Assembly: GCA_903830945.1 (NCBI GenBank)
Contig: CAIKVT010000025.1
Location: 7,816 to 71,815 of the forward strand
Source: an uncultured Elusimicrobia bacterium
GTDB lineage: Bacteria; Elusimicrobiota; Elusimicrobia; UBA1565; UBA9628
Reading direction: 5' to 3'
Length of the DNA: 64,000 nt
Position numbers and translations under genes: made by a program. How positions within the stretch are numbered: position 1 is the stretch's first letter; every line of letters begins with the position of its first letter. Under the pieces are notes generated by a model. That model made no database searches, had not been told where the DNA came from, and was given only the letters and a program-made list of their open reading frames with translations. Shown in pieces: positions 29,500 through 51,489 of this stretch.

Positions 29500-29589
29500 G
29501 GCTAGAGTGTATGTAAATATTTGCGCCAAGGCAAATAATTACATGATATATTTTGCCTTCGGGCTAATCTTTAACCTCTCTTCGATGGC

Positions 29590-36446: not shown

Positions 36447-36516
36447 CAATCATCCCTGACGGCGACGGCCGGATGATGCCGTCTATGGCCGGCTATTTTT
36501 AGAGCAGTTGGAATAG

Positions 36517-36572
36517 CCTTTAAGGGTTAGGCCGGAAAAATAACCCTTAAAGGTTATTTTTCATTCCGGCCC
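36517..36572 (+). promoter_or_regulatory. Two overlapping, mutually exclusive inverted repeats between recQ and gvpA (terminator/anti-terminator-like element or operator palindrome)
   Basis: Hairpin A is cctttaagggtta (36517-36529) / taacccttaaagg (36541-36553), a perfect 13 bp followed by ttattttt. Hairpin B is ggccggaaaaataacc (36530-36545) / ggttattttt-cat-tccggcc (36552-36572). The two share nucleotides 36530-36553. Confidence 0.4.
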
Positions 36573-36651
36573 AACATGGTACTTTAGCTTCAGCAACATG
36601 CGCCTTGGGCGCAGGGTGCGATGTGAAATCCGGAACAAGAGGTACAAAAAC

Positions 36652-36858
36652 ATGGCAGTAGAGAAAGCGATCGGTTCGTCCAGCTTGGTCGAAGTCATCG
36701 ACCGGATCCTTGACAAGGGCGTCGTGGTGGACGCGTGGGTCAGAGTATCGCTGGTAGGCATCGAGATTCTCGCGATCGAAGCCCGCGTGGTCGTGGCGTC
36801 CGTTGAGACGTACCTGAAGTACGCCGAAGCCATCGGCTTGACCGCAACAGCCGCCTAA
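36652..36858 (+). CDS. gvpA: Gas vesicle major structural protein GvpA
   Basis: [63 protein letters not shown] is the near-canonical GvpA sequence. The ATG at 36652 is an internal start within the track ORF. Confidence 0.97.
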
Positions 36859-37000
36859 GTCGCGGAAAGAAAGGGAATGCTTGCCGAGCCATCCTCAATC
36901 CGCCGAGTACGGGAAGAAAGCATGGTCCGCCAAGATTTCCTTTATTGCAGCGAACATCATTCAAGCACGGTTTCCTTAATATAGCGGGAGGATACGACCC

Positions 37001-37690
37001 ATGCCCGAGATCCTTGATGTGGAAAACGCCGTAGTAGACATCATCACCTCTCACGAGGCCCGCATTGATAATATCGGCTCACTCTTCGAGAACACCTACT
37101 TGGTTTTTAAGGATTTCCATGAGTCCCTGCAGGACACGAAGCGTGAAAGAGAAGAGATGCGCACGCAATTGCAGGACATCCTCACCCAAAACGAGCATCT
37201 GCGCAGGAAAGATTTCGACCGGATGATGCAGGCCATCCTGTCGGTCCAGGAAGGAAGAGAAAAGGAAGTGAAGAATCTGCTGAACGCTTACTTCAACGAG
37301 CAAAAAGAGATGTCCAAGACGATGCGGATAAACCTGGACGGCGTCAGGGAGTCCCTGGCTAAGGGCGAAGTCCAACGGATCAGGGCATTTCAAGAGCTGC
37401 TCAAGGACATCCTCGCCCGACAGGATGAAAGGAAAGCCGGGGTGACCGCCCAGCTTAAAGAATTCCAGGAAGAACAGAAAGCGGTGGCGTCCCGGCTCAA
37501 GGCTCTTTTATGCAAAGGGCGGGAGCTGCGCATAAAAGATCTTAAAGCAATGCTCAGCGAATTTAAAAGAAAAAGACTGCAAACGGCTGAATCCTGGAAT
37601 TGGCGCACCAGGCTGGGCCACTGCTCCGACGGAAGCCTCATCTCGTATCGAAATAATGATGCTCATGCCGCAAATGACGCGCTCAACTAA
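37001..37690 (+). CDS. Coiled-coil protein in the GvpC position (candidate outer-surface or scaffold gas-vesicle protein)
   Basis: Strong SD GGGAGGA. 229 aa, charged and helical. It carries recurring F-x3-8-[RK]-x-M-like segments (DFHESLQDTKREREEM, YFNEQKEM, EFQEEQKAV). No sequence match to cyanobacterial GvpC 33-aa repeats was recognised. Confidence 0.45.
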   Translation: MPEILDVENAVVDIITSHEARIDNIGSLFENTYLVFKDFHESLQDTKREREEMRTQLQDILTQNEHLRRKDFDRMMQAILSVQEGREKEVKNLLNAYFNEQKEMSKTMRINLDGVRESLAKGEVQRIRAFQELLKDILARQDERKAGVTAQLKEFQEEQKAVASRLKALLCKGRELRIKDLKAMLSEFKRKRLQTAESWNWRTRLGHCSDGSLISYRNNDAHAANDALN

Positions 37691-37717
37691 AATAAGTCAA
37701 CAACCGGGAGGAAGAAA

Positions 37718-38464
37718 ATGGGACTAGCCGATGACATGAAAAACATCACCGAGGGGATCACGGACTCTTATGCTTCACGCATAAGGGCGACGCGCGACCG
37801 TATAAAGGAAGTCGGGGAGTTGGCGGGCAACACCCAGAAAACAGTGCGCGACTTCGCATCCGAGCGCAAGCACATGGGGGCGGGCCAGGCCAAAGCCTTG
37901 GGGGAATTCGTGGGAACCCTGCGGGGCAACGTGGAGGATCTGAGAAAAGCCGCGGGCAGCATGATCCATGGCTTCCAAAAAGACCACAAAGCCATGGCCG
38001 CCGAGCTGAAGGAAAAGGCCGAAGCCCTCAGGGGATCCTTGGCCCAAGGCGAGGCCGACCGTATGAAAGACTACAAGGAGCTCCAGGCCGGCATCCAGGA
38101 AGTCCTTGGACAAGTGAGGAAGAGCGTCAAGGACATCAAGTCCCATGTCGCCGACAAGCTCGAGGAATTCTCCGGCAATCGCGCCATCATGAGCCAGGAA
38201 CTCAAGAAGGACCTGGTCAAGCATGTGGCTGACATCGCCAGGGAGACCAAGGCCGTGTTGGGCGAAGCCAGGACTCTGGTGGATGGGTTTTCGAGCGAAA
38301 GAAAAATGATGTCCGCCAACTGGCAGGGCATGGCCGCCTCCATGGCCAAGAAAAGAGGCGTCCAGCCGGCGGTTCAAACCGCGCCGGTTGCCGCGGAAAT
38401 CGTGAGACCAGAAGAGGCCAGGTCAAAGAAAAGGAAAGCGCATAAAAAGAGAGCGAAGAAGTAG
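37718..38464 (+). CDS. Coiled-coil repeat protein (second GvpC-position protein) with a basic C-terminal tail
   Basis: SD GGGAGGA. There are four copies of an xF-x3-[RHK]K/A-x-M motif: DFASERKHM, GFQKDHKAM, EFSGNRAIM and GFSSERKMM. The C-terminus is SKKRKAHKKRAKK. Confidence 0.45.
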   Translation: MGLADDMKNITEGITDSYASRIRATRDRIKEVGELAGNTQKTVRDFASERKHMGAGQAKALGEFVGTLRGNVEDLRKAAGSMIHGFQKDHKAMAAELKEKAEALRGSLAQGEADRMKDYKELQAGIQEVLGQVRKSVKDIKSHVADKLEEFSGNRAIMSQELKKDLVKHVADIARETKAVLGEARTLVDGFSSERKMMSANWQGMAASMAKKRGVQPAVQTAPVAAEIVRPEEARSKKRKAHKKRAKK

Positions 38465-38593
38465 GCTTTGACCGCGGCGAAGTCCCATCCTGCCCCCCGG
38501 GCCTAAGCCCGGGGGGCAGGGGAGACTTGAAATCGCGACCATACGCGAAATGTTCCGCGGCAAAGGCGGCATCACGAAAAGAGGTGTAAGAAA

Positions 38594-39508
38594 ATGATCG
38601 ATGAAATGACTACGGTGCTGGAGCCAACCCCCTTGCCGGATTTCGTGGAGACGAAACAAGTTAAGGACATCTCGCAGAGAGCGCTTTGCTATATCAAGGC
38701 CGGTTTCCCGGTCCATTTCCGGGGGATCTCAGGCAGCGGCAAGACCACTTTGGCCATGCACATCGCCGGCAAGCTGCTCAGGCCGGTGGTCATGATCCAT
38801 GGCGACGAGGAGTTCACCACTTCCGACCTGGTCGGCGGCGAATACGGCTACAAGATCAGGAAGGTCGTGGACCGCTTCATCTCCCGGGTCTTGAAGACCG
38901 AGGAGGACATGGTCAAGCGCTGGGTGGACAACCGCCTTACCGTTGCCTGCAAATACGGATTCACTCTCATCTATGACGAATTTACGCGCTCCCGGCCGGA
39001 GGCCAACAACATCCTGCTCTCCATCCTGCAGGAGAAGATGATGGATCTACCCGTGGGCCGGGGCGGAGAAGAACCATATTTGAAGGTCGATCCTGACTTC
39101 ACGGCCATATTCACGTCCAACCCGGAGGAGTATGCCGGGGTTCATCGCAGCCAGGACGCGCTGCGCGACCGGATGATAACCATGGACCTGGATTATTTCG
39201 ACTATGAAACGGAGGTCGCCATAACCCAGGCTAAATCCAAGCTTTCTAAGAAAAATTCAGAAACCATCGTCAATATCGTGCGGGGCTTGAGGGAATCCGG
39301 AAAGTGCGAGTTCGCACCCACGGTCCGCGGCTGCATCATGATCGCCAAGACGCTCAAAGTACAGGGCTTGACCCCGGCCCGGGCCAACGGCTCTTTTTCC
39401 CAGATGTGCCAGGATATCCTGGCCTCCGAGACCAGCCGGGTGGGCTCCAAGACGAATCAGGAGCGGGTCAAAGACATCGTCAAGGAACTCGTCACGAAAC
39501 ACAGCTAG
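38594..39508 (+). CDS. gvpN: Gas vesicle AAA+ ATPase GvpN (CbbQ/NirQ/NorQ/GvpN family)
   Basis: VHFRGISGSGKTTLAMHIA (Walker A), TLIYDEFTRS (Walker B) and ALRDRMITMDLDY. Its size and position after gvpA and the gvpC-like genes fit GvpN. Confidence 0.9.
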   Translation: MIDEMTTVLEPTPLPDFVETKQVKDISQRALCYIKAGFPVHFRGISGSGKTTLAMHIAGKLLRPVVMIHGDEEFTTSDLVGGEYGYKIRKVVDRFISRVLKTEEDMVKRWVDNRLTVACKYGFTLIYDEFTRSRPEANNILLSILQEKMMDLPVGRGGEEPYLKVDPDFTAIFTSNPEEYAGVHRSQDALRDRMITMDLDYFDYETEVAITQAKSKLSKKNSETIVNIVRGLRESGKCEFAPTVRGCIMIAKTLKVQGLTPARANGSFSQMCQDILASETSRVGSKTNQERVKDIVKELVTKHS

Positions 39509-39522
39509 CGGGAGACAAGGGC

Positions 39523-39702
39523 ATGGCACTGTTGCGCGTGTATTCCAGGATGGACGCTAAAAGTAAAATTACGCTGCCCCCGGGCATTCGCAAGGAGCTC
39601 GATGTCCGGCCGGGAGAAAAGTTGGAATTGAAGGTCGTGGGAATAAACAAAGCGAGGAAGCTTCTTATTTGTAAGACAAAAAGCGGGAGGCGCCTGCCAT
39701 GA
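39523..39702 (+). CDS. AbrB/MazE/SpoVT-type swapped-hairpin DNA-binding protein (59 aa)
   Basis: MALLRVYSRMDAKSKITLPPGIRKELDVRPGEKLELKVVG has the typical SpoVT-AbrB pattern (ItiPkeiReel.l..Gd.lel). SD GGAGA. An ATGA overlap links it to the next ORF. Confidence 0.6.
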   Translation: MALLRVYSRMDAKSKITLPPGIRKELDVRPGEKLELKVVGINKARKLLICKTKSGRRLP

Positions 39703-40001
39703 AAACAAGACGGTTGCCCAGTCTGCGCGAGATGAAGAGCATACGTTCCGTGGGCATACGCTCCATTCCCAAGGTACAAAGGTCAGGCTATCTGGACATG
39801 TACACGCTGGGCAGGGAGAAAGACCGGTTGGAAAACGAGATTTTCTCTTTGGACAAAAGGAGAAGCGCCGCCGCCAAACAATTAGACGGCGTCTTAAAGC
39901 GCCTCATCCAGCTCCAAAAGGAGACGCGCGAAGGTGAACCGGTCAGAACTCATAAAAGCATGCCCGCTAAACCCTTAAAGACCATGTCCATGAAATATTG
40001 A
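39699..40001 (+). CDS. Small basic coiled-coil protein (100 aa), unknown; possibly GvpV/GvpR-like
   Basis: YLDMYTLGREKDRLENEIFSLDKRRSAAAKQLDGVLKRLIQLQKE. Translationally coupled to the AbrB-like ORF. The family assignment is not verifiable from memory. Confidence 0.4.
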   Translation: MKTRRLPSLREMKSIRSVGIRSIPKVQRSGYLDMYTLGREKDRLENEIFSLDKRRSAAAKQLDGVLKRLIQLQKETREGEPVRTHKSMPAKPLKTMSMKY

Positions 40002-40059
40002 TCCGGTGTCAGGCCGGCAAGGGGAAAGGGCGTCGTCGCATAAAAAAAGGAGGCCTATC

Positions 40060-40599
40060 ATGGCAAAGAAAATAGAACCAAAGAAAGATGAAAACGTGGA
40101 CATTGATTTTGGGATGGGGAAATTGAGCCTGGGCGGTATCTTCGAGGGCGTCGGGAAATTGGTCGAGTTGGCCGCGAAGCTGCAGGAAGCGGGCGGCGAA
40201 ATCAAAAAGGAAGGCGAGATCGATTTGAGCCATCTCAAAAAAGGGATGAAGGGAGTTTTTGGGTTTTCCGTCAAGAGCCTGGCCGGGGGCAAGCAGGTCG
40301 TGGAACCTTTCGGCAACATCAAAAAAACAGCCGCCGGACCCAAGATCGATGACGAGCGCGAGCCCATCGTCGATATCTTCGACGAGAAAGAGGAGGTCCG
40401 GGTCTACGCCGAAATGCCCGGTGTCAACGAAGCGGATATTAAGTTGGATCTTAAGGGCGACATTTTAGACATCCGCGCCGGGACCGGCGACAGAAAATAT
40501 CATAAAGAAGTCCTGCTGCCGGCGAAAGTGTCGGCCGAGGCTCCTGTTCCGTCCTATAAAAACGGAGTCCTCGAAGTGAAACTCAAGAAATGCCCCTGA
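40060..40599 (+). CDS. Hsp20/alpha-crystallin-domain protein (GvpH-like small heat-shock protein)
   Basis: SD AAAGGAGG. The ACD reads PIVDIFDEKEEVRVYAEMPGVNEADIKLDLKGDILDIRAG...KYHKEVLLPAKV...SYKNGVLEVKLKK. Confidence 0.8.
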   Translation: MAKKIEPKKDENVDIDFGMGKLSLGGIFEGVGKLVELAAKLQEAGGEIKKEGEIDLSHLKKGMKGVFGFSVKSLAGGKQVVEPFGNIKKTAAGPKIDDEREPIVDIFDEKEEVRVYAEMPGVNEADIKLDLKGDILDIRAGTGDRKYHKEVLLPAKVSAEAPVPSYKNGVLEVKLKKCP

Positions 40600-41552
40600 T
40601 CGGACTTAAGGAAAGCGCGTTAAAGCTTATCCTGTTCGGCGGCAAGGGCGGCGTGGGGAAAACAACCTGCGCCGCCAGCGCCGGCCTTTTCTTAGCCGGG
40701 AATTTTAAGACCCTGCTGCTGTCCACGGACCCGGCGCATTCCATATCAGACAGCTTGGGGCAACATATCGGTGACGCCATAACGGAGGTCAAGGACGTAC
40801 GGAATCTGAGCGCTCTTGAAATCAACGCGGAAAAAGCCCTTTCTGAATTCAAAATAGAATACGAAGAAGAGATCAAGAAAATACTGGACACCTCGACTAA
40901 TTTGGACAACGAAGACATCGAGTCTGTTTTTTCCTTGTCCATCCCCGGTCTGGATGAAGTCATGGGCTTTAAAACCATAATGGACCTCATGGACGAAGGG
41001 AAATTCGGGAAATACATAGTCGATACCGCGCCGACCGGCCATGCCCTGCGGCTTCTGACCATGCCCCAGCTCCTGGATGATTGGGTCAAGATGCTGGCCA
41101 AGCTCAGATGGAAGTATCGATACATGATCAAGACTTTCAGCGGGAAATACGCTCCCGACGAAGCCGACGATTTCCTTTTGAACATGAAAAAAACGGTGAA
41201 AAAGATCGAAAGCCTGCTCAAGGATCAGAGCCGCTGCGAGTTCATCGCCGTCACCATCCCCGAAGATATGGCCATCCAGGAAACCACGCGTTTGATCCAC
41301 AGTTTGAGCGAGTATGGCGTGAAAGTCAAGCAATTGGTCATCAACAATGTCATAGAGCCTCGAGATTGCGCTTTTTGTCAAGAGCGCCGGAAAGAGCAGG
41401 AGAAGTACATAAGTCAGATCAGGAAAAAATTCAGCAGTCTCAATACGACCTTGTCTTTTTTGCGTCCCCGAGAAGTCAAAGGCGTAAATGCCTTGAGCGC
41501 TTTCGCCGGGCAGTTGGCGCAGGGCGACCCCGTAAACCGGATGGTGGCTTAA
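40590..41552 (+). CDS. Get3/TRC40/ArsA-family P-loop ATPase (single-domain, with CxxC motif)
   Basis: LILFGGKGGVGKTTCAAS (deviant Walker A), LLLSTDPAHSISDSLG and VDTAPTGHALRLL. CAFCQERRKEQEKYISQI resembles the Get3 zinc/dimerisation CxxC segment. It overlaps the hsp20 end by 10 nt. Confidence 0.85.
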   Translation: MPLIGLKESALKLILFGGKGGVGKTTCAASAGLFLAGNFKTLLLSTDPAHSISDSLGQHIGDAITEVKDVRNLSALEINAEKALSEFKIEYEEEIKKILDTSTNLDNEDIESVFSLSIPGLDEVMGFKTIMDLMDEGKFGKYIVDTAPTGHALRLLTMPQLLDDWVKMLAKLRWKYRYMIKTFSGKYAPDEADDFLLNMKKTVKKIESLLKDQSRCEFIAVTIPEDMAIQETTRLIHSLSEYGVKVKQLVINNVIEPRDCAFCQERRKEQEKYISQIRKKFSSLNTTLSFLRPREVKGVNALSAFAGQLAQGDPVNRMVA

Positions 41553-41555
41553 CCC

Positions 41556-43724
41556 ATGAATAAGGATATGACCTTGAAAGTCAAAGAAGCCCAGGCCAAG
41601 GACGTGGGCCGGGCCATCGTGCGGATCGACCCCGAGGATATGAAGACTCTGGGCGCCGAAGTCGGCGATGTCCTGGAGATCGAAGGCAAGCGAAAGACGC
41701 CGGCCAAGGTCATGCCCTGCTACGCCGAGGAGCGAGGCAAGGGCATCATCCAGATGGACGGCATAGGCCGCGAAAACGCGCAGATCGGGTTGGGTGAAAA
41801 GGTGAAGATCCGAAAGATCGTTCCCAAGCCCGCCGGAAGGATCACGCTGCTTCCTTTATCTCTTTCCAGCCTGCCGCAAAGCCAGGACACCAAATACCTC
41901 GGTTCTCTCATCGCCGGGCTTCCTGTTTCGAGCGGCGACCGGGTCAGGGCCACGCTCTTCGGCTCACGGTCCTGTGATTTCAAGGTGTCGGAGACCGTTC
42001 CCGACGGCGCGGTCCTGATCAATCCGGAGACCATAATAAGAATGACGGAGACTAAAAAAATAGAGAAGGAAGGGCCGGCCAAGGGGGGGGCGACCAAGAT
42101 ATCCTACGAGGACATCGGCGGACTCGGCTCGCAGATCCGCAGGATCCGTGAGATGATCGAGTTGCCCTTGCGCTATCCCCAGATATTCGAAAGATTGGGC
42201 ATAGACGCGCCCAAGGGCGTCTTGCTTTACGGCCCGCCCGGAACCGGGAAAACCCTGATCGCCCGGGCCGTGGCCAATGAAACCGATGCTTATTTCAACC
42301 ATATCTCCGGTCCTGAGATCATGGGCAAGTTCTACGGCGAGAGCGAGGGCCGCTTGCGCGGCGTGTTCGAAGAGGCGCAGGCCCATGCCCCGGCCATCAT
42401 CTTCATAGACGAGATAGACGCCATCGCTCCCAAACGCGAGGACATGGGCGGCGAAAAGCAGGTGGAGCGGCGCGTGGTGGCGCAGCTCTTGGCGCTTCTG
42501 GACGGCCTGGAGTCCCGCGGCCAGGTCATCGTGATAGGCGCGACCAACATCCCCAACACTCTCGACCCCGCGCTGCGCCGGCCGGGGCGCTTCGACCGGG
42601 AGATCTCCGTCCCCATCCCGGACAAGAACGGGAGGCTGCAGATCCTGCAGATCCACACCCGGGGCATGCCCTTGGCCAAGGATGTGAGCCTGGAGAAACT
42701 GGCTGAGATCACGCACGGATTCGTGGGCGCCGATCTCGAGGCCCTGGCCAGGGAAGCGGCCATGTCGGCTTTAAGGCGGATCCTGCCGGACCTCGACCTT
42801 GCGATGGCGGATATCCCCTACGAGACCTTGCTCAAGCTCGAAGTCACCATGGACAATTTCGGCGACGCCATGAAGGAGGTGGAGCCCTCGGCCATTAGGG
42901 AATTCTTCGTGGAAGTTCCCGATGTGAAATGGGAAGAAGTCGGCGGGCTGGAGAACATCAAGGAAGAGCTTAAGGAAGCGGTCGAGTGGCCGCTCAAGTA
43001 CGCGGATATCTTCAAAAAGGCCGGCGCGCAGCCGCCCAAGGGCATACTCCTTTACGGCCCCCCGGGCACGGGTAAGACCTTGCTGGCCAAGGCCGTGGCC
43101 AGCCAGACGGGCGTTAATTTCATCTCGGTCAAGGGGCCCAGCCTCATCTCGAAATTCGTCGGAGAAAGCGAGAAGTCCCTGCGCGAGGTGTTCAAGACCG
43201 CCAAGCAGGCCTCGCCCACCATCCTGTTCTTCGACGAGATCGACGCCCTGGTCCCCAGAAGAGGCTCGGCCAGCACGGACGCGCATGTGACCGAGCGCGT
43301 GATCAGCCAGTTCCTGGCCGAAATGGACGGCATCGAGGAGCTCAAGGGCGTGGTGGTCTTGGCCGCCACCAACAGGCTCGACTTGATCGAGCCGGCGATC
43401 CTGCGCAGCGGCCGGTTCGACCTGCTCATGGAGCTTCCCAAGCCGGATCTTAAAACCCGTGAGGAAATATTCAAGATACACGTCAGGGGCAAGCCGCTCG
43501 CCAAAGACGTCGATCTTAAGGAATTGGCGAAAGCGACCGATGGCAAGGCCGGCTCCGACATCGAGCTGATCTGTCGCAAGGCCGTCATGCTGGCGCTCAG
43601 GGAATATATAAACAGTGATGCCGACGTCAAAACGCTCGAAACGAAATTCGACCTCAGGATCCTGAAAAGGCATTTCGAAGAGGCGAATAAAGTGGATCGA
43701 GCCCGGCAGCAACTGGAAAAATAG
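41556..43724 (+). CDS. Cdc48/p97/VAT-type AAA+ ATPase (N domain + D1 + D2)
   Basis: The N domain reads [37 protein letters not shown]. There are two Walker A sites ([20 protein letters not shown] and [20 protein letters not shown]). Walker B sites are IIFIDEIDA and [12 protein letters not shown] regions are present ([26 protein letters not shown]). Confidence 0.9.
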
Positions 43725-43735
43725 AGGATCAAAAC

Positions 43736-44785
43736 ATGGCCAAGACAGGGAAATATCTTTATGGGATCATCGCCTCTTCCGCGCCGGAATTCTCAAGGCC
43801 CGGGGCAATCGTGGACTTCGCGGACATCTACGTCGTCCCCTGTCAGGACCTGGCGGCAGTGGTCGGCGACTCTGAAATAGTCGATTACCAGCACATGCGC
43901 AAGGACGCCCTGGCCATGCTCCTGGTCCGGCATCAGAAAGTCATCGAAAAGATCATGGAGCTGGGGCACGCCGTCATCCCCATAAGGCTGGGGACATTCG
44001 CCGCGGATGACGCCGCGGTCCGGGACATCCTGAGCAAGGGCCACCGCCTGATCCATGAAATCCTTCCGAAAATCAATGATAAGATAGAAATCGACGTCGC
44101 CGCCGTCTGGAAGGATTTCGGCCCCGCGATCAAGGAGATCGGCCAGCATCCGGAGATAATGGAGCTGAAAAAAACCCTGCTCGGCAACCCTCAGGGTGTG
44201 ACCATGGACGACCAGATGAAGGTCGGCCTCGCGGTCAAGAAACTATTGGACGCCAAAAGAGAACATGTCGCGAACTTGATACAAGCCGCTTTAAAGGATT
44301 TGAGCCATGACTGCCGGGCTCATGAGCTCATGGACGATCAAATGGTCGTGAACTGCGCCTTTCTTATTAGCCGGGCCGAACAAGAGGGATTTTACGCCCG
44401 GGTGGAAGGCCTGGACGCGGAATTGGCCGGGAAGCTGAATTTCAGATGCATCGGCCCGCTGCCGCCGTACAGTTTTTACACCCTGGAGATAAAGAAGATG
44501 GATTTCCAGGAGCTGGAGTGGGCCCGCAACAAACTCGGGCTCTTGAGCCCGGTCGCGACTAAAAACGAGATCAAGAAAGCCTATCACCGCGCCGCCATCT
44601 CCTTCCACCCCGACAAGAATCCTGACACGCCGGGCATGGATAAAGAATTCGGCATCGTCAAAAGAGCGCATAAAATACTGGCGGACTATTGCCTGGCCAG
44701 CGAGCAAACTCGGCCTGGAGAAGACATCCCCTTTGGCGAAGAGCGATTCCAGGAGCGTTCGATTTTGGTGAAGGTGGGGGAATAG
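43736..44785 (+). CDS. GvpF/GvpL-family protein fused to a C-terminal J domain (DnaJ-like, HPD motif)
   Basis: N-terminus KYLYGIIASS...YVVPCQDLAAVVGDSE...HQKVIEKIMELGHAVIPIRLGT and ...FRCIGPLPPYSF form the GvpL/F fold pattern. The C-terminus WARNKLGLLSPVATKNEIKKAYHRAAISFHPDKNPDTPGMDKEFGIVKRAHKILAD is a J domain. Confidence 0.8.
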   Translation: MAKTGKYLYGIIASSAPEFSRPGAIVDFADIYVVPCQDLAAVVGDSEIVDYQHMRKDALAMLLVRHQKVIEKIMELGHAVIPIRLGTFAADDAAVRDILSKGHRLIHEILPKINDKIEIDVAAVWKDFGPAIKEIGQHPEIMELKKTLLGNPQGVTMDDQMKVGLAVKKLLDAKREHVANLIQAALKDLSHDCRAHELMDDQMVVNCAFLISRAEQEGFYARVEGLDAELAGKLNFRCIGPLPPYSFYTLEIKKMDFQELEWARNKLGLLSPVATKNEIKKAYHRAAISFHPDKNPDTPGMDKEFGIVKRAHKILADYCLASEQTRPGEDIPFGEERFQERSILVKVGE

Positions 44786-45556
44786 ATGACGCTGAGCAAG
44801 GACGGAAGATACATCTATTGCATCATCGGCACGAAACAGGAAAGGAACTTCGGCCCTATCGGCTTGAATGGCCGCGAGGTTTTGACCATAGGTTATGAGG
44901 ACCTTGCCATGGTGGTCAGCAACCATCCCTTGGCCAAGCTCGTGGTCAACCAGGACAACATGGTGGCCCATGAAAAGGTCATCGAGGAGGTCATGAAGGA
45001 GTTCGACGGCGTGCTCCCGGTGAGATACGGAACCGTTGCCGCGGATGCCGATGAAATAAGGAACCTTCTGGACCGCAGGCGTCGGGAATTCAAGATCGCC
45101 TTGCGTGATCTCGACCACAAGGTGGAATTGGGCGTCAAAGGGATATGGCCGGACATGGATGCCATCTTCAAGGAAGTCGTGAAAGACAACAAGGCCATCA
45201 AGAAACTCAAGGAGAAGATCCAAAACGACGGGGGCACCAAGAACATCCCGGCGAAAATGGAAGCGGGCAGAATGGTCGAAGCGGCGCTGCAGAAAAAGAA
45301 AGCGGACGAGGCCGAGGATATCGTGGAAGCCCTCAGAAAGGCCTCCGTCAACTTCAAGCTCAACAAGACCACGGGCGACAATATGTTCATGAACGCCGCT
45401 TTCCTGGTGGATAAGGGGCGGGAGAAAGAATTCGACAACATCATGGATGATTTGGGCGAAAAGCACAAAAAGCGGATAAAGTTCCTCTATGCCGGTCCCT
45501 TGCCTACTTTCAACTTCGTCAATATCGCCATTTATCCAGAGGCCTGGGAGAAATAG
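44786..45556 (+). CDS. GvpF/GvpL-family gas vesicle protein (paralog 2)
   Basis: GRYIYCIIGTKQERNFGPIGLNGREVLTIGYEDLAMVVSNHP...HEKVIEEVMKEFDGVLPVRYGT...LYAGPLPTFNF. Confidence 0.85.
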   Translation: MTLSKDGRYIYCIIGTKQERNFGPIGLNGREVLTIGYEDLAMVVSNHPLAKLVVNQDNMVAHEKVIEEVMKEFDGVLPVRYGTVAADADEIRNLLDRRRREFKIALRDLDHKVELGVKGIWPDMDAIFKEVVKDNKAIKKLKEKIQNDGGTKNIPAKMEAGRMVEAALQKKKADEAEDIVEALRKASVNFKLNKTTGDNMFMNAAFLVDKGREKEFDNIMDDLGEKHKKRIKFLYAGPLPTFNFVNIAIYPEAWEK

Positions 45557-46342
45557 ATGGAAGCGGAATTCAAAGAAGGCAGATACATCTACTGCATCAT
45601 AGCGTCGAAGCAGCCGCAATCCTTCGGGCCTTTGGGGATCGGCGGGAGAAGCGACGATCTTTACACGATCTCCTTCAAGGATGTCGCCGCGGTGGTGAGC
45701 AATTCTCCCATCAAAAGCTATTCGCTCTCCCACGAAAATCTGATCGCCCATGAGAAGGCCATCGAAGAGGTCATGAAGGGGCACACCGTTTTGCCGGTCC
45801 GGTTCTGCACCATCGCCGCCGATGACGCGAAAATCAAGGAGATACTGGAAAAGGCGCACGACAAGATCCGCGGCTTATTGAAGGCCATGTCGGGCAAGAA
45901 AGAGCTGGGTTTGAAAGCTGTTTTTAAAGACGTCATTTACCAGGACATCGTGGCGGAGCACGGCGACATCCGGACCTTGAAGGAAAAGATAGCCGTCCTG
46001 CCGCCCGCCCAGACGCTGACCGCCCGCAGGCAGATAGGCCAGATGGTCGAAGTCGCCCTGAATCAAGCCCGGGAGCATTATAAAGGCATCATCATGGATG
46101 GCCTGTCGCCCCTGGCGACGGAAGTCAAAATCAACCGCAACTACGGCGAGATGATGGTTGTCAGCGCCGCCTTTTTGGTAGACGAAAAAAAGGAGACGAG
46201 CTTCGATCAGCGGGTGGACCAGCTGGGCGCGAAATACGTCGACAAGATCAAGTTCAAGTATGTGGGGACATTGCCGCCGTTTAATTTCGTCAACCTGGTC
46301 ATTAATACGCAGACGGCGGATCTCACCGGCACCGCATCTTAA
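45557..46342 (+). CDS. GvpF/GvpL-family gas vesicle protein (paralog 3)
   Basis: GRYIYCIIASKQPQSFGPLGIGGRSDDLYTISFKDVAAVVSNSP...HEKAIEEVMKGHTVLPVRFCT...KYVGTLPPFNF. Confidence 0.85.
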   Translation: MEAEFKEGRYIYCIIASKQPQSFGPLGIGGRSDDLYTISFKDVAAVVSNSPIKSYSLSHENLIAHEKAIEEVMKGHTVLPVRFCTIAADDAKIKEILEKAHDKIRGLLKAMSGKKELGLKAVFKDVIYQDIVAEHGDIRTLKEKIAVLPPAQTLTARRQIGQMVEVALNQAREHYKGIIMDGLSPLATEVKINRNYGEMMVVSAAFLVDEKKETSFDQRVDQLGAKYVDKIKFKYVGTLPPFNFVNLVINTQTADLTGTAS

Positions 46343-46346
46343 GCCC

Positions 46347-46586
46347 ATGTTCCTGATCGACGATGTCGTGCTCTCGCCGCTGAAAGGCCTCCTTTGGCTG
46401 GGCGAGAAGATCGGAGATCTGTGCGATAAGGAGATATCCGACGATGGCCGCGTGATGGAAAGACTCATGGCCCTCCAGCTCAAGTTTGAATTGGATGAGA
46501 TAAGCGAGGAAGAATACTCCAAGCAGGAAAAAGAGATCTTGGCGCAATTGGAAGCCATCAGAAAAATGAAGGAAGCGGGGGGATGA
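46347..46586 (+). CDS. gvpG: Gas vesicle protein GvpG
   Basis: MFLIDDVVLSPLKGLLWLGEKIGDLCDKEISDD...LMALQLKFELDEISEEEYSKQEKEILAQLEAIR is the canonical GvpG pattern. Internal start within the track ORF. Confidence 0.85.
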   Translation: MFLIDDVVLSPLKGLLWLGEKIGDLCDKEISDDGRVMERLMALQLKFELDEISEEEYSKQEKEILAQLEAIRKMKEAGG

Positions 46587-46587
46587 G

Positions 46588-46851
46588 ATGCCCGACATCG
46601 AGGACGCCGGTAAAGCGGCCGTCGAGTTCTTAAAAAAGAACCTCAAGATCAAAGAGGCGAAGGTCGTCAAGGCGACGAAGGCCGGCCTGGGCTGGGAAAT
46701 CGAGGCGGAAGTTTATGAGGAGAGCTCTTTCATGAAATCCCTCGGGCTGGCCACGAAAGTCCAGGACCGGAACCTCTACGTCGTCAAGCTCGACGACGGC
46801 CTTGAGGTCGTATCCTACGGGCGCAAGGGGCTCATGCCCGCGAGCGAGTAA
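46588..46851 (+). CDS. gvpO: Gas vesicle protein GvpO-like
   Basis: AGKAAVEFLKKNL...KATKAGLGWEIEAEVYEES...RNLYVVKLDDGLEVVSYGRK fits the GvpO core pattern (gW.v.vEvvE...YevelD..Gel..y.R) recalled from memory. Confidence 0.6.
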   Translation: MPDIEDAGKAAVEFLKKNLKIKEAKVVKATKAGLGWEIEAEVYEESSFMKSLGLATKVQDRNLYVVKLDDGLEVVSYGRKGLMPASE

Positions 46852-46866
46852 GCCGGCGGGGTCGAA

Positions 46867-47670
46867 ATGGAATCGGAAAAGGAACTGCTATATTTATATT
46901 GCGTCGTCGATCAGGCGCCTGATCTTAAAGAAGGCCGGGATTGGTTCGACAAGCCTTTTTTCGTCCAACACCAAGGCCTTTATGCCGTGGTCAGCCGGGT
47001 CTCGGGCTCCACATTCGACGAAGAGAATCTGAAGAAGAATCTCGGCGACCTGGAATGGGTGAAGATTCACGTCATCACGCATGAACAGGTCATAGAGGAC
47101 GTCATGGAGCGCGCCTGCGTGGTCCCTTTCAAGTTCGCCACGCTGTTTAAAAGCGAGGACAGCTTGAAGTCCATGCTCGCCGAGCGCGCCGGCATGCTTA
47201 AAGAAACCCTGCGCAGACTGCAAGGTCACGAGGAATGGGGAGTGAAGATCTATTGCGATATGAGCAGGCTGCGGGCTTGGCTTGCCCAAAACGCGGAGAT
47301 TTTAAAAATCGACAGCGAGATCGGATCGGCCGCGCCGGGCAGGTCGTTCATTTTGCGGAAGAAAAAAGAGGCGCGGCTTGACACCTTTACGACCGCGAAG
47401 CTCAATGAATGCGGCCAGGCGAGTTTCGACAGGCTCAAAACACTCAGCGCCCGCACCCGCATCAATAAATTGCTGCCGGAGGAAGTGACGGAGAGAAAAG
47501 AGGACATGATCTTAAACGCCGCGTTCTTGATCGATAAAAACAAAGTCAAGACCTTTATCGAGACGGTCGGCCAACTCAAGGCGCAACAGGAAAGCAACGG
47601 GCTTTCCTTTGACTGCACGGGCCCTTGGCCGCCCTTTAACTTCTGCGATTTCTCCGAAGGGACCAACTAG
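46867..47670 (+). CDS. GvpF/GvpL-family gas vesicle protein (paralog 4)
   Basis: LLYLYCVVDQAPD...QHQGLYAVVSRVS...HEQVIEDVMERACVVPFKFATLF...DCTGPWPPFNF. Confidence 0.8.
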   Translation: MESEKELLYLYCVVDQAPDLKEGRDWFDKPFFVQHQGLYAVVSRVSGSTFDEENLKKNLGDLEWVKIHVITHEQVIEDVMERACVVPFKFATLFKSEDSLKSMLAERAGMLKETLRRLQGHEEWGVKIYCDMSRLRAWLAQNAEILKIDSEIGSAAPGRSFILRKKKEARLDTFTTAKLNECGQASFDRLKTLSARTRINKLLPEEVTERKEDMILNAAFLIDKNKVKTFIETVGQLKAQQESNGLSFDCTGPWPPFNFCDFSEGTN

Positions 47671-47671
47671 C

Positions 47672-47893
47672 ATGAGCAGCCGCGACGTCGTCTTCGAATC
47701 CAAAGAGGTGACCCTTCTGGAGATCCTGGACCGGGTGCTGGATAAAGGCGTGGTCATCTCCGGTGATCTGGTCATTTCCGTGGCGGAAGTCGACCTGGTC
47801 TATATAGGCTTAAAAGCGCTGATCAGCTCCGTGGAAACCATGGAACGCTTGCGAGGCGCCCCGTTTTATGGGCCCATGCAGGAGCCGAATTGA
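47672..47893 (+). CDS. GvpA-fold minor structural protein (GvpJ/GvpM/GvpS-like, 73 aa)
   Basis: KEVTLLEILDRVLDKGVVISGDLVISVAEVDLVYIGLKALISSVETMERL. Confidence 0.85.
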   Translation: MSSRDVVFESKEVTLLEILDRVLDKGVVISGDLVISVAEVDLVYIGLKALISSVETMERLRGAPFYGPMQEPN

Positions 47894-48609
47894 TGGCCGC
47901 ATATATCTACGGCGTCATAGATTCCAACGACCGGCTCGATGCTGCCATGACCGGGCTAAAAGGAACTTTGCTCCGCAATCTCCCCTATCGCGACATGGGT
48001 GTAATCCTCAGCGATTTCGACAAGAGAATCGCGCCTATAACCAAAGATCACGCATTCGAGCATGAGAAGGTCGTGGAAAGGCTCATGGAGCATTTCACCG
48101 TTCTGCCGTTCCGGTTCCCCACTGTTTTCGATAATGAAGAAGGCGTTCTTTCCATGATGAGCGCCCGTTATGACAATTTCACGGACAATCTCAGAAGGCT
48201 CCGCGGCAAGATGGAATTCGGCATAAAAGTCATCTGGCCAGGAGACAAGATGAGAATGCGCCTCACCCCGGATCAAAACAGTTCCCCTCTGCTCGCGTCG
48301 GATACGCCCGTAAAAAACTTCCTCAAGAAAAAGTTTCAAGAATACCAAAAAGAGAAAAAAATAGAGAATGAGGCTGAGGCTCGCATCGCTTTGGTGGATG
48401 GATTTTTCGATGGATTGGCCGCGGAGAAGAAACTGGAGAAGCTGAAGACCGAGAATCTGCTCTTATGCGCCTTTTATCTGGTCGAAAAGGGAAAGCAGGA
48501 AGACTTCAGGCAAGCCTTCGAGCGATTGAGGTCTTCTTCGGGCGAATTCAAATATCTGTTCAGCGGCCCCTGGCCGCCCTATAATTTCATTAAAACGGCC
48601 AATTCATGA
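47893..48609 (+). CDS. GvpF/GvpL-family gas vesicle protein (paralog 5)
   Basis: AAYIYGVIDSND...LPYRDMGVILSDFD...HEKVVERLMEHFTVLPFRFPTVF...FSGPWPPYNF. The ATG at 47893 immediately follows the upstream TGA. Confidence 0.8.
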   Translation: MAAYIYGVIDSNDRLDAAMTGLKGTLLRNLPYRDMGVILSDFDKRIAPITKDHAFEHEKVVERLMEHFTVLPFRFPTVFDNEEGVLSMMSARYDNFTDNLRRLRGKMEFGIKVIWPGDKMRMRLTPDQNSSPLLASDTPVKNFLKKKFQEYQKEKKIENEAEARIALVDGFFDGLAAEKKLEKLKTENLLLCAFYLVEKGKQEDFRQAFERLRSSSGEFKYLFSGPWPPYNFIKTANS

Positions 48610-48941
48610 GCCAAGAGGTCAAGACGGATTCCCCCGGAGATTTCCTCGAGGAGCTGGAAAAAACGCGGGATAGTCTTCCGAAAAGGATCGCGGCTAACCC
48701 CCAAAACGTGGAAAAGGGCCTGGCCAAGCTGGTCCTGACGCTCATCGAACTCATCCGTAAGCTAATGGAAAAACAGGCCATGCGCCGGATCGAGAACGGA
48801 TCTTTGAGCGAAGCCGAGGTCGAGCGGGTCGGCGAGACTCTGATGAAGCTGGAAAACAAGATGGTGGAGCTCAAGCAGATATTCGGGCTTGAAGATGAAG
48901 ACCTTAATTTAAATCTTGGCCCATTGGGAAAGCTGCTTTAG
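48606..48941 (+). CDS. gvpK: Gas vesicle protein GvpK
   Basis: NPQNVEKGLAKLVLTLIELIRKLMEKQAMRRIENGSLSEAEVERVGETLMKLENKMVELKQIFGLEDEDLNLNLGPLGKLL is the canonical GvpK sequence. Confidence 0.9.
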   Translation: MSQEVKTDSPGDFLEELEKTRDSLPKRIAANPQNVEKGLAKLVLTLIELIRKLMEKQAMRRIENGSLSEAEVERVGETLMKLENKMVELKQIFGLEDEDLNLNLGPLGKLL

Positions 48942-48950
48942 CAAACAGCC

Positions 48951-49214
48951 ATGAGTCCCGCGGAAGAGCCCATGACGGCCTGCCCGAAATTCCAGAAACA
49001 AGCGGCCCTGCTCAAGGACATACGAGACAAAATCTACAAAGCTGAAGAAGCGCTGAAGCTGGGGCTGGCAGGGCAACTGCAGGAAGAAATCAAAGAGCTG
49101 TTTTCCTGTTTGGATTACAAGAAGGCCAGCGCGGATTGCAAGAAGTGCCGCTGTGTCGCCGAGCTGCGCAATAAAATGGCGAACCGCGTCATCAATAGAG
49201 AAAAGGCATTGTAA
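48951..49214 (+). CDS. Small Cys-containing hypothetical protein (87 aa) within the gvp cluster
   Basis: Helical and charged, with cysteines at ACPKF, FSCLD and DCKKCRCV. No recognised family. It fits the operon spacing. Confidence 0.4.
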   Translation: MSPAEEPMTACPKFQKQAALLKDIRDKIYKAEEALKLGLAGQLQEEIKELFSCLDYKKASADCKKCRCVAELRNKMANRVINREKAL

Positions 49215-49231
49215 TAAGAGAGGATCACTCC

Positions 49232-49531
49232 ATGCATCAAGAACAGATCATGCACAATTCGCAATCTACCAACCTGGCCGACATCCTGGAACGGGTGCTG
49301 GACAAGGGCATCGTCATCGCCGGGGACATAAAGATCCAGATCGCCGACATAGACCTGCTTAACATCAAGATACGCCTGGTGGTCGCCTCGGTGGACAAGG
49401 CCATGCAGATGGGGATCAATTGGTGGCAGCAGGATGCCTATTTGTCGACCAAGGCGAGAGACTCAGCCATGGCCAAGGAAAACGCGGGGCTGCAAAAAAG
49501 ACTAGAAAGATTGGAAAAAAAGCTAAAGTAA
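49232..49531 (+). CDS. gvpJ: Gas vesicle protein GvpJ
   Basis: NLADILERVLDKGIVIAGDIKIQIADIDLLNIKIRLVVASVDKAMQMGINWW plus a C-terminal coiled-coil tail. Confidence 0.9.
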   Translation: MHQEQIMHNSQSTNLADILERVLDKGIVIAGDIKIQIADIDLLNIKIRLVVASVDKAMQMGINWWQQDAYLSTKARDSAMAKENAGLQKRLERLEKKLK

Positions 49532-49554
49532 TCCAGCCGTAACGGGAGGCGCCT

Positions 49555-50241
49555 ATGCGCACGCTGATCTATGTGCCGGTCATCCATTCCAGCGCCGACC
49601 TGGGCTCCCTGGCCAAAGAGGTGACGCGGCGGGGCGTGGCGGATTTCGGCCCTGAATTCTGGGCGGAGCACGAAAAGACCATCCTTGGCTTCTGGGACGC
49701 GGTCATCAGATATTTTGACTCAGCCGAGGTGCCCGGCTTCAAGCTCTATCAGGATGGAATGATCACGGACGGCGAGGTCGCGCTGAAAATAGTCGAGGAA
49801 GGGGTGAAATCCGGAAGTAAGAATTACGAGCTCGTCTCGGCGCTTCTTAAAAAGGGCGCCGTGTTGGTCAAAACAGAGGATTTCAGCCTTGTCAAGGAAG
49901 AGCGGGACCGGATGCTCACGATAACCCGGGCCAAGTCAATTTTTACTAAAGTACTCGCTTTTCTCTGGTATAAACTGAACAAAAACAAGCTCTTGAACAA
50001 GCGCGATGCGTTTATCACGAACAGGATAAGTGAAACCTTAAACGACGGTGAAACGGGGATCATTTTCGTCGGCGCCTACCATAACATCAAGCAGCGGCTT
50101 CCCAAGGATATCAGCATCGTCGAAATAAAGGACGCGGATAAGGTCAGGGAATATCAGGCTTTATTGCCATTTTATCATAAGAAAAAGGAACGGTTTTCCC
50201 AGCTCGCGGGCTACCTGGTTGAGGAAATAAAGCATACTTAG
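49555..50241 (+). CDS. Uncharacterised conserved protein, paralog of 61990..62568; possibly distantly TraB/GumN-like
   Basis: Shares these blocks with the 61990 protein: LIYVPVIHS/LVYVPILHA, KLYQDGM..DGEV/RIYQDGLPVCGEEL, SGSKNYELVSALLKKGAVLVKTED/SGSRNHQLILKLVAQGAQLEGTES and KRDAFITNRI...IIFVGAYHNI/MRDGFIFHRI...PLVFMGVMHRV. Confidence 0.55.
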   Translation: MRTLIYVPVIHSSADLGSLAKEVTRRGVADFGPEFWAEHEKTILGFWDAVIRYFDSAEVPGFKLYQDGMITDGEVALKIVEEGVKSGSKNYELVSALLKKGAVLVKTEDFSLVKEERDRMLTITRAKSIFTKVLAFLWYKLNKNKLLNKRDAFITNRISETLNDGETGIIFVGAYHNIKQRLPKDISIVEIKDADKVREYQALLPFYHKKKERFSQLAGYLVEEIKHT

Positions 50242-50271
50242 CATTTAATCCGATAATTTGTATAGTATGGT

Positions 50272-51405
50272 ATGATAGAAAGAAATTTCTGGGAACGTCG
50301 CATTGAAGCCGCCTGGGGCCAGGCACCCATCGTGTGGCTTTCCGGCGTCAGGCGGAGCGGCAAGACAATCCTGGCAAAAGCCCTGGGAGAAAAAGCGCTC
50401 TACCTCAACTGCGACTTGCCGGCTGTTGGGGACATGACGCACGACCCTGAACTGTTTTATCGCAATTGCAGCAGGCCGATCGTGGTTTTTGATGAGATAC
50501 ATCAGCTTGAGGACCCAAGCCGGCTCCTGAAGATAGGGGCGGACATGTTCCCCAAGCTGAAGATACTCGCCACCGGCTCATCGACACTGGCCGCCACTAA
50601 AAAATTCAAGGACACGTTGGCCGGCAGGAAACGGCAAATACATCTTCTGCCCGTCTTGTGGGACGAATTCCCCGGGTTCAACAACGCCACCCTGCAAAAA
50701 CGTCTTTTTCACGGAGGCCTCCCGCCCGCCCTGCTCATGGAGAAAAAAGACGCGTCTTTCTACCGCGAATGGATGGATTCGTTTTTTTCCCGGGATGTGC
50801 AAAAACTTTTCTCTTTCCGTGACGTGGATAAGTTCAACGTTCTTTTTGAATACCTGATGAAGCGGAGTGGCGGGCTTTTTGAAGCGGCAAAAACGGCCTC
50901 GAATTTAGGGATAAGCCGGCCGACCATAGAAAGCCATCTGCGCGCGCTTGAGATCACGCAGGCTGTCACCATCGTCCGCCCTTTTCACGGTGGCGGCCTG
51001 AAAGAACTGATTAAAACCCCCAAGTGCTATTGTTTTGATACCGGCTTTGTCAGTTTTTTTCGGGGATGGGACCCTTTGCGCGCGCAGGATTACGGATCCC
51101 TGTGGGAGCATCTGGCCCTGGAATGGCTTATGGCGCGCTTCCCTGATGATAAGATACGGTACTGGCGGGACACATCTGGGGCGGAATTGGATTTTGTGAT
51201 CCAGCGCAAGAACGGCCGGGTCGATGTCTTCGAATGCAAATGGTCCTCGTCGGAATTCGAGCCCCGGGCGCTGAAGACTTTCCGTTCCTGGTACCCTGAG
51301 GGGAAAAACTATCTCGTCTGTCCGTCTGGCGCGCCGGCCTACGTCAAGGCGTTTAAAGGCGTTGGGGTCACCGTGTGCGACCCGGCATCCCTGGGAGATA
51401 AATGA
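50272..51405 (+). CDS. AAA+ ATPase of the COG1373 type (AAA_14 + DUF4143), second copy of the family in the window
   Basis: PIVWLSGVRRSGKTILAKAL (Walker A), IVVFDEIHQL (Walker B) and a C-terminal ELDFVIQRKNGRVDVFECKW nuclease-like fold. Confidence 0.85.
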   Translation: MIERNFWERRIEAAWGQAPIVWLSGVRRSGKTILAKALGEKALYLNCDLPAVGDMTHDPELFYRNCSRPIVVFDEIHQLEDPSRLLKIGADMFPKLKILATGSSTLAATKKFKDTLAGRKRQIHLLPVLWDEFPGFNNATLQKRLFHGGLPPALLMEKKDASFYREWMDSFFSRDVQKLFSFRDVDKFNVLFEYLMKRSGGLFEAAKTASNLGISRPTIESHLRALEITQAVTIVRPFHGGGLKELIKTPKCYCFDTGFVSFFRGWDPLRAQDYGSLWEHLALEWLMARFPDDKIRYWRDTSGAELDFVIQRKNGRVDVFECKWSSSEFEPRALKTFRSWYPEGKNYLVCPSGAPAYVKAFKGVGVTVCDPASLGDK

Positions 51406-51489
51406 TGACCAAGACCGCTCCACACCAGGGCGCGGAACGCTTCCGGGCTTTGGCGGAACTCGCCTGGGAAGGGCTATAATAGCCCTACC

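Follow-up and report, generated by a model that had tools for sequence, protein, structure and literature searches.

A GvpF-family gas-vesicle protein fused to a J domain in an uncultured Elusimicrobia bacterium

The main open question of gas-vesicle biology is how cells keep the extremely hydrophobic shell protein GvpA soluble and insert it into the shell as this grows and stays gas-filled, and the roles of the GvpF and GvpL paralogues are still debated on the basis of interaction screens. Proteins of the GvpF family have been described from Microcystis aeruginosa (structure 4QSG), Anabaena (6L5D), Bacillus/Priestia megaterium and Halobacterium; in P. megaterium, interaction mapping has led to the proposal that the hydrophobic part of GvpA2 has GvpF as its primary partner, bound transiently in the manner of a chaperone (PMC11445434), and in E. 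coli proteotoxic stress from shell protein has been reported on heterologous gas-vesicle expression (PMC12848028). Gas-vesicle (gvp) gene clusters in which several GvpL/F paralogues are accompanied by Hsp20 and an ArsA homologue are known from Polaribacter irgensii, Pelodictyon luteolum and Geobacter uraniireducens, in a survey that mentions neither a J domain nor Cdc48 (Castillo & Saier 2010; PMC2963123). Here we describe an operon of the same type in a stretch of 64,000 nucleotides (hereafter the window; contig CAIKVT010000025.1 of assembly GCA_903830945.1, positions 7,816 to 71,815 of the forward strand) from an uncultured Elusimicrobia bacterium, in which one of the GvpF paralogues, here called GvpF-J, carries a J domain at its C-terminus.

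J domains dock ATP-bound Hsp70 and trigger ATP hydrolysis through a His-Pro-Asp (HPD) motif, and class C J-proteins typically direct Hsp70 to a single client or site; examples are HscB, for IscU, and auxilin, for clathrin. HscB/Jac1, which delivers the single client IscU to the Hsp70 HscA/Ssq1, is like GvpF-J in pairing a J domain with what looks like a dedicated client domain, in having neither a glycine/phenylalanine-rich (G/F) region nor a zinc finger, in its apparent commitment to one biogenesis pathway and in being encoded in the operon of that pathway, but the domain order is reversed, the J domain of GvpF-J being C-terminal, and the client domains are unrelated. Auxilin/GAK, whose C-terminal J domain recruits Hsc70 to clathrin lattices for uncoating, offers a second likeness, that of a C-terminal J domain on a module recognising a self-assembling protein shell, and serves as the analogy for a role in shell recycling; auxilin, however, is eukaryotic and unrelated outside the J domain, and its part in disassembly is demonstrated where that of GvpF-J is hypothesised. 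Canonical class A DnaJ has in common with GvpF-J the HPD motif and the core of helices II and III, whereas its G/F region, zinc finger and C-terminal client-binding domains are absent from GvpF-J. Compared with ordinary GvpF, the likeness lies in the fold of the N-terminal 250 residues, the Pfam family and the setting in a gvp operon; GvpF-J adds ~100 C-terminal residues (J domain and tail) and belongs to a paralogue clade of its own.

A GvpF fold and a J domain in one chain

The GvpF-J gene occupies 43736..44785 on the forward strand, coordinates that an earlier note on this DNA, made from the letters alone, had given exactly and with peptides that all occur in the translation. It opens with ATG and closes with a TAG stop codon at 44783-44785, encodes 349 amino acids and is tightly packed in its operon, the ATG of the next gene following directly on the TAG. 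A candidate ribosome-binding site (GAGGA, 43724..43728, forward strand), its role inferred from the letters, lies 7 nt ahead of the ATG and shares the last base of the preceding stop codon. Residues 5-248 (43748..44479) form a GvpL_GvpF domain, presumably the client binder, with a Pfam match (PF06386) at E 5.1e-55 and 187.6 bits against a cutoff of 23.6 that covers profile positions 1-244 of 245. The J domain spans residues 257-325 (44504..44710), with helix I at 257-266, helix II at 276-290 and helix III at 301-325; the Pfam DnaJ family (PF00226) matches residues 271-317 at E 2.9e-12 and 46.9 bits (gathering cutoff 27.8; profile positions 9-55 of 63), and the protein holds no third Pfam domain. 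The Hsp70-activating tripeptide H291 P292 D293 is encoded by cac ccc gac at 44606..44614. Behind the J domain stands a conserved C-terminal tail (residues 326-349, 44711..44782; consensus F.EEEFKKNA.LVKV). The earlier reading of the last ~85 residues as a J domain is borne out for helices I-III and the HPD motif, while the last ~25 residues are predicted to form a separate element rather than a canonical helix IV.

Both assignments hold at the level of families and folds. A profile built from 120 relatives of GvpF-J matches the solved GvpF structures 6l5d (3e-21) and 4qsg (1e-20) as well as dozens of J domains of known structure, with values down to 7e-12, among them those of E. coli DnaJ (1bq0, 1xbl, 5nro_B), with a gap-free alignment of the C-terminal part to DnaJ residues ~11-62. 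An AlphaFold2 (AF2) model computed from the family alignment has a mean predicted local distance difference test score (pLDDT) of 91.0 and a predicted template-modelling score (pTM) of 0.83. Searched with Foldseek, its N-terminal body shows the two-lobed alpha+beta fold of GvpF and matches the GvpF crystals at an identity of only ~20% (6l5d_B, E 8.5e-15, template-modelling score 0.82 on the target; 4qsg, 0.81), and its J domain superposes on the DnaK-bound J domain of DnaJ (5nro_B) with a root-mean-square deviation of 1.4 Å over 55 columns at 36% identity, and on 2dn9 with one of 1.3 Å. The HPD loop (291-293) sits in the model between helix II and the long helix III, which pair as an antiparallel hairpin behind helix I, and the tail is modelled as strand-helix-strand, with DSSP strands at 330-332 and 343-347; from the pTM of the whole chain we infer that the tail may dock the J domain onto the GvpF body and so fix its position. 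Pfam, family profile and model thus agree on a GvpF/L-family region fused to a bona fide J domain with an intact HPD motif, as the earlier note had proposed.

Equivalog-level models help to place the protein within its two families. Cyanobacterial GvpF scores higher than GvpL in NCBIfam (79 against 54.8 bits), both falling below the equivalog cutoffs of 350 and 200, and the bacterial DnaJ models reach 22-37 bits against cutoffs of 338-619. TIGR02349, one of the latter, gives 36.7 bits against 377.2 and covers the J domain alone, so GvpF-J is not a full-length, class A DnaJ. Lacking a G/F-rich region, a zinc finger and the DnaJ C-terminal domains, it is a class C (type III) J-protein.

The continuity of the two domains is supported by independent data. 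Sequence from the window is found in at least 8 lake or freshwater metagenome runs belonging to four studies, and across the junction at 44450-44520, where the earlier note had suggested looking for an assembly or frameshift join, contigs from independent runs cross without indels: those of two separate studies cover 43247-44753 (X4) and 44205-44593 (X1). Logan contigs of some other runs end near 44500-44600, which is low-depth fragmentation with no alternative join. An identical 349-residue product occurs on 15 contigs from independent ENA and JGI assemblies, with the same neighbours every time.

An old and widespread branch of the GvpF family

A search of 5.8 billion clustered proteins returned 957 relatives of GvpF-J at E<1e-5. 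According to the precomputed Pfam domains of these matches, all 120 of the best relatives (51-88% identity) carry PF06386 and PF00226 in one chain, and H291, P292 and D293 are invariant among them. An exhaustive HMMER scan, covering 1.84 billion representatives at 50% identity, produced 279 matches at E<=1e-30, and when the best 150 of these (reaching ~30% identity) were examined, 138 proved to be full length (310-415 residues) with an alignment running through the J region, the same architecture as in the window. The HPD motif is retained in 134 of these 138, a natural QPD being among the exceptions, and each of its three columns is 98% conserved, while surrounding loop positions vary. The J core (A263, L267, A282, Y283, F305, A311, Y312 and L315) is conserved at 76-95%, and the helix II position equivalent to R22 of DnaJ is a lysine in 67% of the representatives. 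Retention of the HPD motif and of the helix II/III core around a varying loop is the pattern expected of a functional J domain, with selection acting on its catalytic motif. The fusion is conserved across hundreds of relatives.

A neighbour-joining tree, without bootstrap, was drawn from GvpF domains after removal of the J domain; it took in the window protein together with 14 diverse loci and 15 distant representatives, the Octadecabacter protein described below and the J-less paralogues. All J-bearing proteins group in one clade, to which none of the J-less paralogues encoded beside them, whether GvpF-type or GvpL-type, belongs. This suggests a single, ancient origin of the fusion, which has been retained since, and the J-bearing proteins seem, as judged from their sequences, to define a distinct GvpF subfamily descended from one old paralogue. 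A locus survey using one genome per GTDB species found 167 loci with relatives. The best 80 of the 167, all in metagenome-assembled or single-cell genomes, cover at least 12 phyla: the closest are from Elusimicrobiota (63-66% identity), and the other carriers among these 80 include Omnitrophota, Desantisbacteria, Nitrospirota, Nitrospinota, many Planctomycetota, Ignavibacteriales, Atribacterota, Latescibacter, Sumerlaeota, Kiritimatiellaeota, Cloacimonadota, Aminicenantales and Actinomycetota.

The architecture also has a cultured carrier. A tblastn search of plasmids located it in Octadecabacter arcticus 238, a gas-vacuolate isolate from sea ice, on the finished plasmid pOA238_160 (11791-12873). 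The protein, WP_015497776.1, has 360 residues and 31% identity to that of the window, with GvpL_GvpF at 19-261, DnaJ at 278-330 (28.0 bits, against the cutoff of 27.8) and the HPD motif kept. The gvp genes are listed in the genome paper, where the J domain is not noted (PMC3646047). The cluster contains Hsp20 and is flanked by insertion sequence elements. At the HPD position of the O. arcticus protein, its Antarctic sister O. antarcticus 307 has QQD, and the two make a natural pair for judging how much the J domain matters.

The earlier note's impression that the architecture had not been described stands for the open full-text literature that was searched, in which no paper describing a J domain on a Gvp protein was found, Hurt 2023, Huber 2023 and Iburg 2024 included (subscription-only papers such as Pfeifer 2012 lay outside the search); it does not extend to sequence databases, where the architecture is plentiful under automatic names such as 'GvpL/GvpF family gas vesicle protein', 'J domain-containing protein', 'DnaJ-domain-containing protein 1' and 'Chaperone protein DnaJ', nor to cultured bacteria, given O. 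arcticus. The last of these names is, for members of this family, a misannotation. The fusion thus appears to be old, widespread and undescribed in the literature searched, and it is, as far as sequence can tell, the first genomic link between the building of gas vesicles and the Hsp70 chaperone system.

A proposed chaperone for the shell protein and alternative readings

The reading that we favour, with a probability of roughly 60%, is that GvpF-J is a class C J-protein dedicated to gas vesicles, which binds shell protein of the GvpA family and passes it to the housekeeping DnaK, or relies on that DnaK for its release, within a block of chaperones encoded in the same operon. A class C architecture, a GvpF fold, the chaperoning of GvpA2 proposed for GvpF and the proteotoxicity of shell protein together point to a client-specific co-chaperone of DnaK, and the recruitment of DnaK to GvpA-type clients is its most plausible function. 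By analogy with ordinary GvpF, the GvpF fold would act as the client-binding module, holding the hydrophobic, aggregation-prone face of GvpA, GvpJ or GvpM; the C-terminal J domain, positioned by the tail, would dock ATP-bound DnaK through the HPD loop and trigger ATP hydrolysis, upon which DnaK would either clamp onto the GvpF-bound client or strip it off. GvpA binding, the use of DnaK and the direction in which the client passes are all conditional in this scheme, which is compatible with a role in assembly as well as in recycling, the two not being mutually exclusive.

The genes directly upstream furnish the strongest clue from context, one that the earlier note had overlooked. In order along the forward strand they encode an Hsp20 of the alpha-crystallin type (40006..40599; Pfam HSP20, with the NCBIfam archaeal Hsp20 model at 137.4 bits, just under its cutoff of 140), a single-domain Get3/TRC40/ArsA ATPase of 320 residues (40590..41552; TIGR00345, 273.5 bits) and a double-ring AAA+ ATPase of the Cdc48 family (41556..43724; TIGR01243, 943.8 bits against a cutoff of 802.65, with Pfam CDC48_N, CDC48_2 and two AAA domains), followed by GvpF-J itself. 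Counting only loci that extend far enough upstream, 41 of 42 contain Hsp20 and 35 of 42 the Get3/ArsA-like ATPase, and in 53 of 55 the closest gene upstream of GvpF-J encodes Cdc48. No report of Cdc48 in gvp clusters was found in the literature searched. Such a block of Hsp20, Get3/ArsA-like ATPase, Cdc48-like unfoldase and GvpF-J might keep shell protein soluble and pass it on to the machinery of nucleation and growth, or might extract it from misassembled material.

No Hsp70, GrpE or ClpB signature was detected in the window or within ±10 kb of 80 related loci by a six-frame motif search, which a very divergent Hsp70 could escape; HscB, in contrast, has its dedicated Hsp70 encoded nearby, and without an Hsp70 in the clusters the partner of GvpF-J would be the housekeeping DnaK. 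A separate observation concerns Psychromonas ingrahamii, in which the numbers of two 'DnaK-like' genes (1232 and 1233) and of one heat-shock gene (1246) fall shortly before those of a gvp cluster at 1248-1262 (Table 9 and the gas-vesicle section of the genome paper; PMC2405808), an arrangement that is possibly another type of physical connection between the genes of Hsp70 and those of gas vesicles.

Several points weigh against a DnaK co-chaperone. Solved GvpF proteins are ~250 residues long and the classical model systems build gas vesicles without a J domain, which cannot therefore be a general requirement; similarly, nine of ten GvpF/L matches on plasmids end at residue 247 and have no J domain. 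In the alphaproteobacterial branch the motif has decayed, to QQD in O. antarcticus 307 (P0281) and to HQD in P0277, with Paracoccaceae Fryx2 keeping HPD, and across the family four of the 138 representatives have lost it. Where the motif has decayed and the protein has been kept, the GvpF moiety must have a function independent of the J domain. A canonical helix IV is absent from the AF2 model, an extended helix III leading instead into the tail, and the Pfam match stops at position 55 of 63. Finally, the interior of a finished vesicle is out of reach of DnaK.

The alternative that survives best, one we regard as possible and rather unlikely, shifts the emphasis from building shells to recycling them. 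Here the GvpF domain would recognise the hydrophobic, normally gas-facing surface of GvpA once collapse or misassembly of a shell has exposed it; DnaK would be brought in by the J domain, and would act with the Cdc48-like unfoldase and Hsp20 to dismantle the shell to reusable monomers. The near-constant presence of Cdc48 immediately upstream, at a spacing of only 11 nt in the window, is what such a role would lead one to expect, as is that of Hsp20. So are the features of the Cdc48 itself, in which both pore loops are aromatic (KFYGESE and KFVGESE) and the C-terminus has no HbYX-type motif, and which, on the model of archaeal VAT/Cdc48, we take to be a stand-alone unfoldase. O. arcticus, on the other hand, has the fusion and Hsp20 yet neither Cdc48 nor ArsA in its cluster, and the GvpF-J gene stands among genes of the nucleation type (GvpF, GvpG, GvpL, GvpK and GvpJ), which suggests biogenesis. 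We know of no cooperation between Cdc48 and Hsp70 in bacteria, which also counts against recycling.

A comparison with bacterial disaggregation by IbpA/B, DnaK/DnaJ and ClpB gives this idea a fuller form. The gvp operon supplies the same three kinds of player, a small heat-shock protein, a J-protein and a double-ring AAA+ ATPase with aromatic pore loops, but its AAA+ ATPase is of the Cdc48/VAT family and not an Hsp100, and so has no M-domain on which DnaK could dock; its J-protein appears client-specific, and the set is encoded with the organelle rather than in a heat-shock regulon. The operon might, tentatively and against the odds, encode a self-contained machine for one organelle, in which Hsp20 and the Get3-like ATPase would hold the shell protein, GvpF-J would mark client or shell and recruit DnaK, and Cdc48 would take the place of ClpB in threading GvpA out of collapsed or misassembled shells. 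If this were so, it would be a bacterial counterpart both of uncoating by auxilin and Hsc70 and of disaggregation by Hsp70 and Hsp104, and the first teamwork of Cdc48 and Hsp70 in bacteria.

A more distant alternative, to which we attach little credence, denies the J domain any role with Hsp70 and makes it a structural or docking module for Cdc48, for another Gvp protein or for self-association, the HPD motif being kept for some other reason. The lack of a detected Hsp70 signature in the clusters and the strict adjacency to Cdc48 would fit, as would the family-specific tail in place of helix IV and the suggestion, from the pTM of 0.83 and the strands of the tail, that the J domain is packed rigidly on the GvpF body and not flexibly tethered. 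The pattern of conservation, however, is that of working J domains, both in the HPD motif and in the lysine equivalent to R22, and J-like domains outside the Hsp70 cycle typically lose HPD. The Octadecabacter fusion, with no Cdc48 beside it, indicates that the J domain does not depend on that ATPase. More improbable still is a stronger variant that has the J domain acting on Cdc48 directly; to our knowledge no J domain acts on an AAA+ ATPase. Lastly, an assembly, frameshift or gene-calling error that merged a GvpF gene with a small, independent gene for a J-protein is ruled out, to a vanishing residual chance, by the junction-spanning contigs, the 15 identical products and the conservation of the architecture in all 120 best relatives (down to 51% identity), in 138 of the best 150 cluster representatives and on the finished plasmid of O. 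arcticus.

Should GvpF-J indeed be a co-chaperone of DnaK, its implications would reach beyond this locus. A GvpF paralogue coupled by evolution to the Hsp70 cycle, with selection maintaining it in at least 12 phyla, would be independent evidence for the GvpF fold as a client-binding chaperone module, and a point mutant of the HPD motif offers a sharp experimental handle on it. Most gas-vesicle clusters fail to assemble in E. coli or mammalian cells, the hosts of acoustic reporter genes; for those of the GvpF-J type a compatible DnaK may be needed, and the block of Hsp20, Get3-like ATPase, Cdc48-like ATPase and GvpF-J could serve as a helper module. The Cdc48-family ATPase, for its part, gains a defined and tractable cellular context in bacteria.

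The operon and its surroundings

GvpF-J is the ninth of ~19 co-directional genes that run from 36.6 to 50.3 kb on the forward strand, in an order that is near-identical in ~45 long loci. The first is GvpA (open reading frame 36598-36858; Pfam Gas_vesicle), whose likely true start is the methionine of MAVEKA at 36652. It is followed by a conserved protein placed by synteny (37001-37690) and by an apolipoprotein-like helical protein (37718-38464) with a sub-threshold Pfam match (32.1 bits against 90). With its helical repeats, lysine-rich tail and position two genes past gvpA, the latter may be functionally analogous to GvpC, the protein that strengthens the shell from outside. GvpN (38594-39508; TIGR02640, 337.8 bits) comes next, and then a protein without a Pfam or NCBIfam family (39699-40001) that precedes the chaperone block. 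The single-domain ArsA-like ATPase of that block differs from the gvp-linked ArsA of Castillo & Saier, which has two domains and ~600 residues.

Downstream of GvpF-J lie two J-less GvpF-type paralogues (44786-45556 and 45557-46342; Pfam E 1e-63 and 4e-63), which NCBIfam models as GvpF-like below the equivalog cutoffs and which occupy a separate clade in the tree. The tail of the operon (46260..50241), assigned by Pfam, NCBIfam and synteny, begins with GvpG, after which a GvpO-like protein is indicated by a weak match. Two GvpL-type paralogues (46867-47670 and 47890-48609; NCBIfam GvpL-like, again below the equivalog cutoffs) bring the GvpF/GvpL paralogues of the operon to five, one of them with a J domain. 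Between these two lies a GvpM/J-like protein of 73 residues (47672-47893; MSSRDVVFESKEVTLLEILDRVLDKGVVISGD...), for which the list of open reading frames shows only a longer frame starting with TTG; a GvpJ-like match stands at this position in most of the related loci. GvpK (48606-48941) and a GvpJ/A-like protein (49232-49531), both recognised by family matches, are interleaved with two proteins without a Pfam or NCBIfam family (48951-49214 and 49555-50241). These two and the proteins at 37001-37690 and 39699-40001, all four family-less, recur in synteny in over 40 gvp clusters across many phyla, and judging by that synteny they are probably accessory gas-vesicle proteins. A scan of 36000-51600 for consensus promoters and terminators gave fewer sites than shuffled controls and was hence uninformative.

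The guanine-cytosine content of the operon region (36000-50500) is 0.51-0.60, against 0.62-0.67 in most of the flanking DNA, and genes for AAA_14/DUF4143 ATPases bracket the wider region, at 28330-29529 on the reverse strand and 50272-51405 on the forward strand. Low guanine-cytosine content, the bracketing ATPase genes and the spread across phyla together suggest a laterally transferred island, and the gvp operon is probably mobile. Further upstream, on the forward strand, 24530-27058 encodes a protein of 842 residues that combines a TOTE conflict-system archaeo-eukaryotic primase domain (281 bits) with a ResIII/DEAD helicase, a candidate defence gene, and 32783-33898 encodes a Fic/DOC protein with DUF4172 upstream of the operon. 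Beyond the operon, also on the forward strand, 51490-61601 holds a CheB-CheR-PAS fusion of 983 residues and then PAS-rich proteins, a fragment-like protein with a sigma-54 DNA-binding domain and hybrid histidine kinases; these could exert sensory control over buoyancy.

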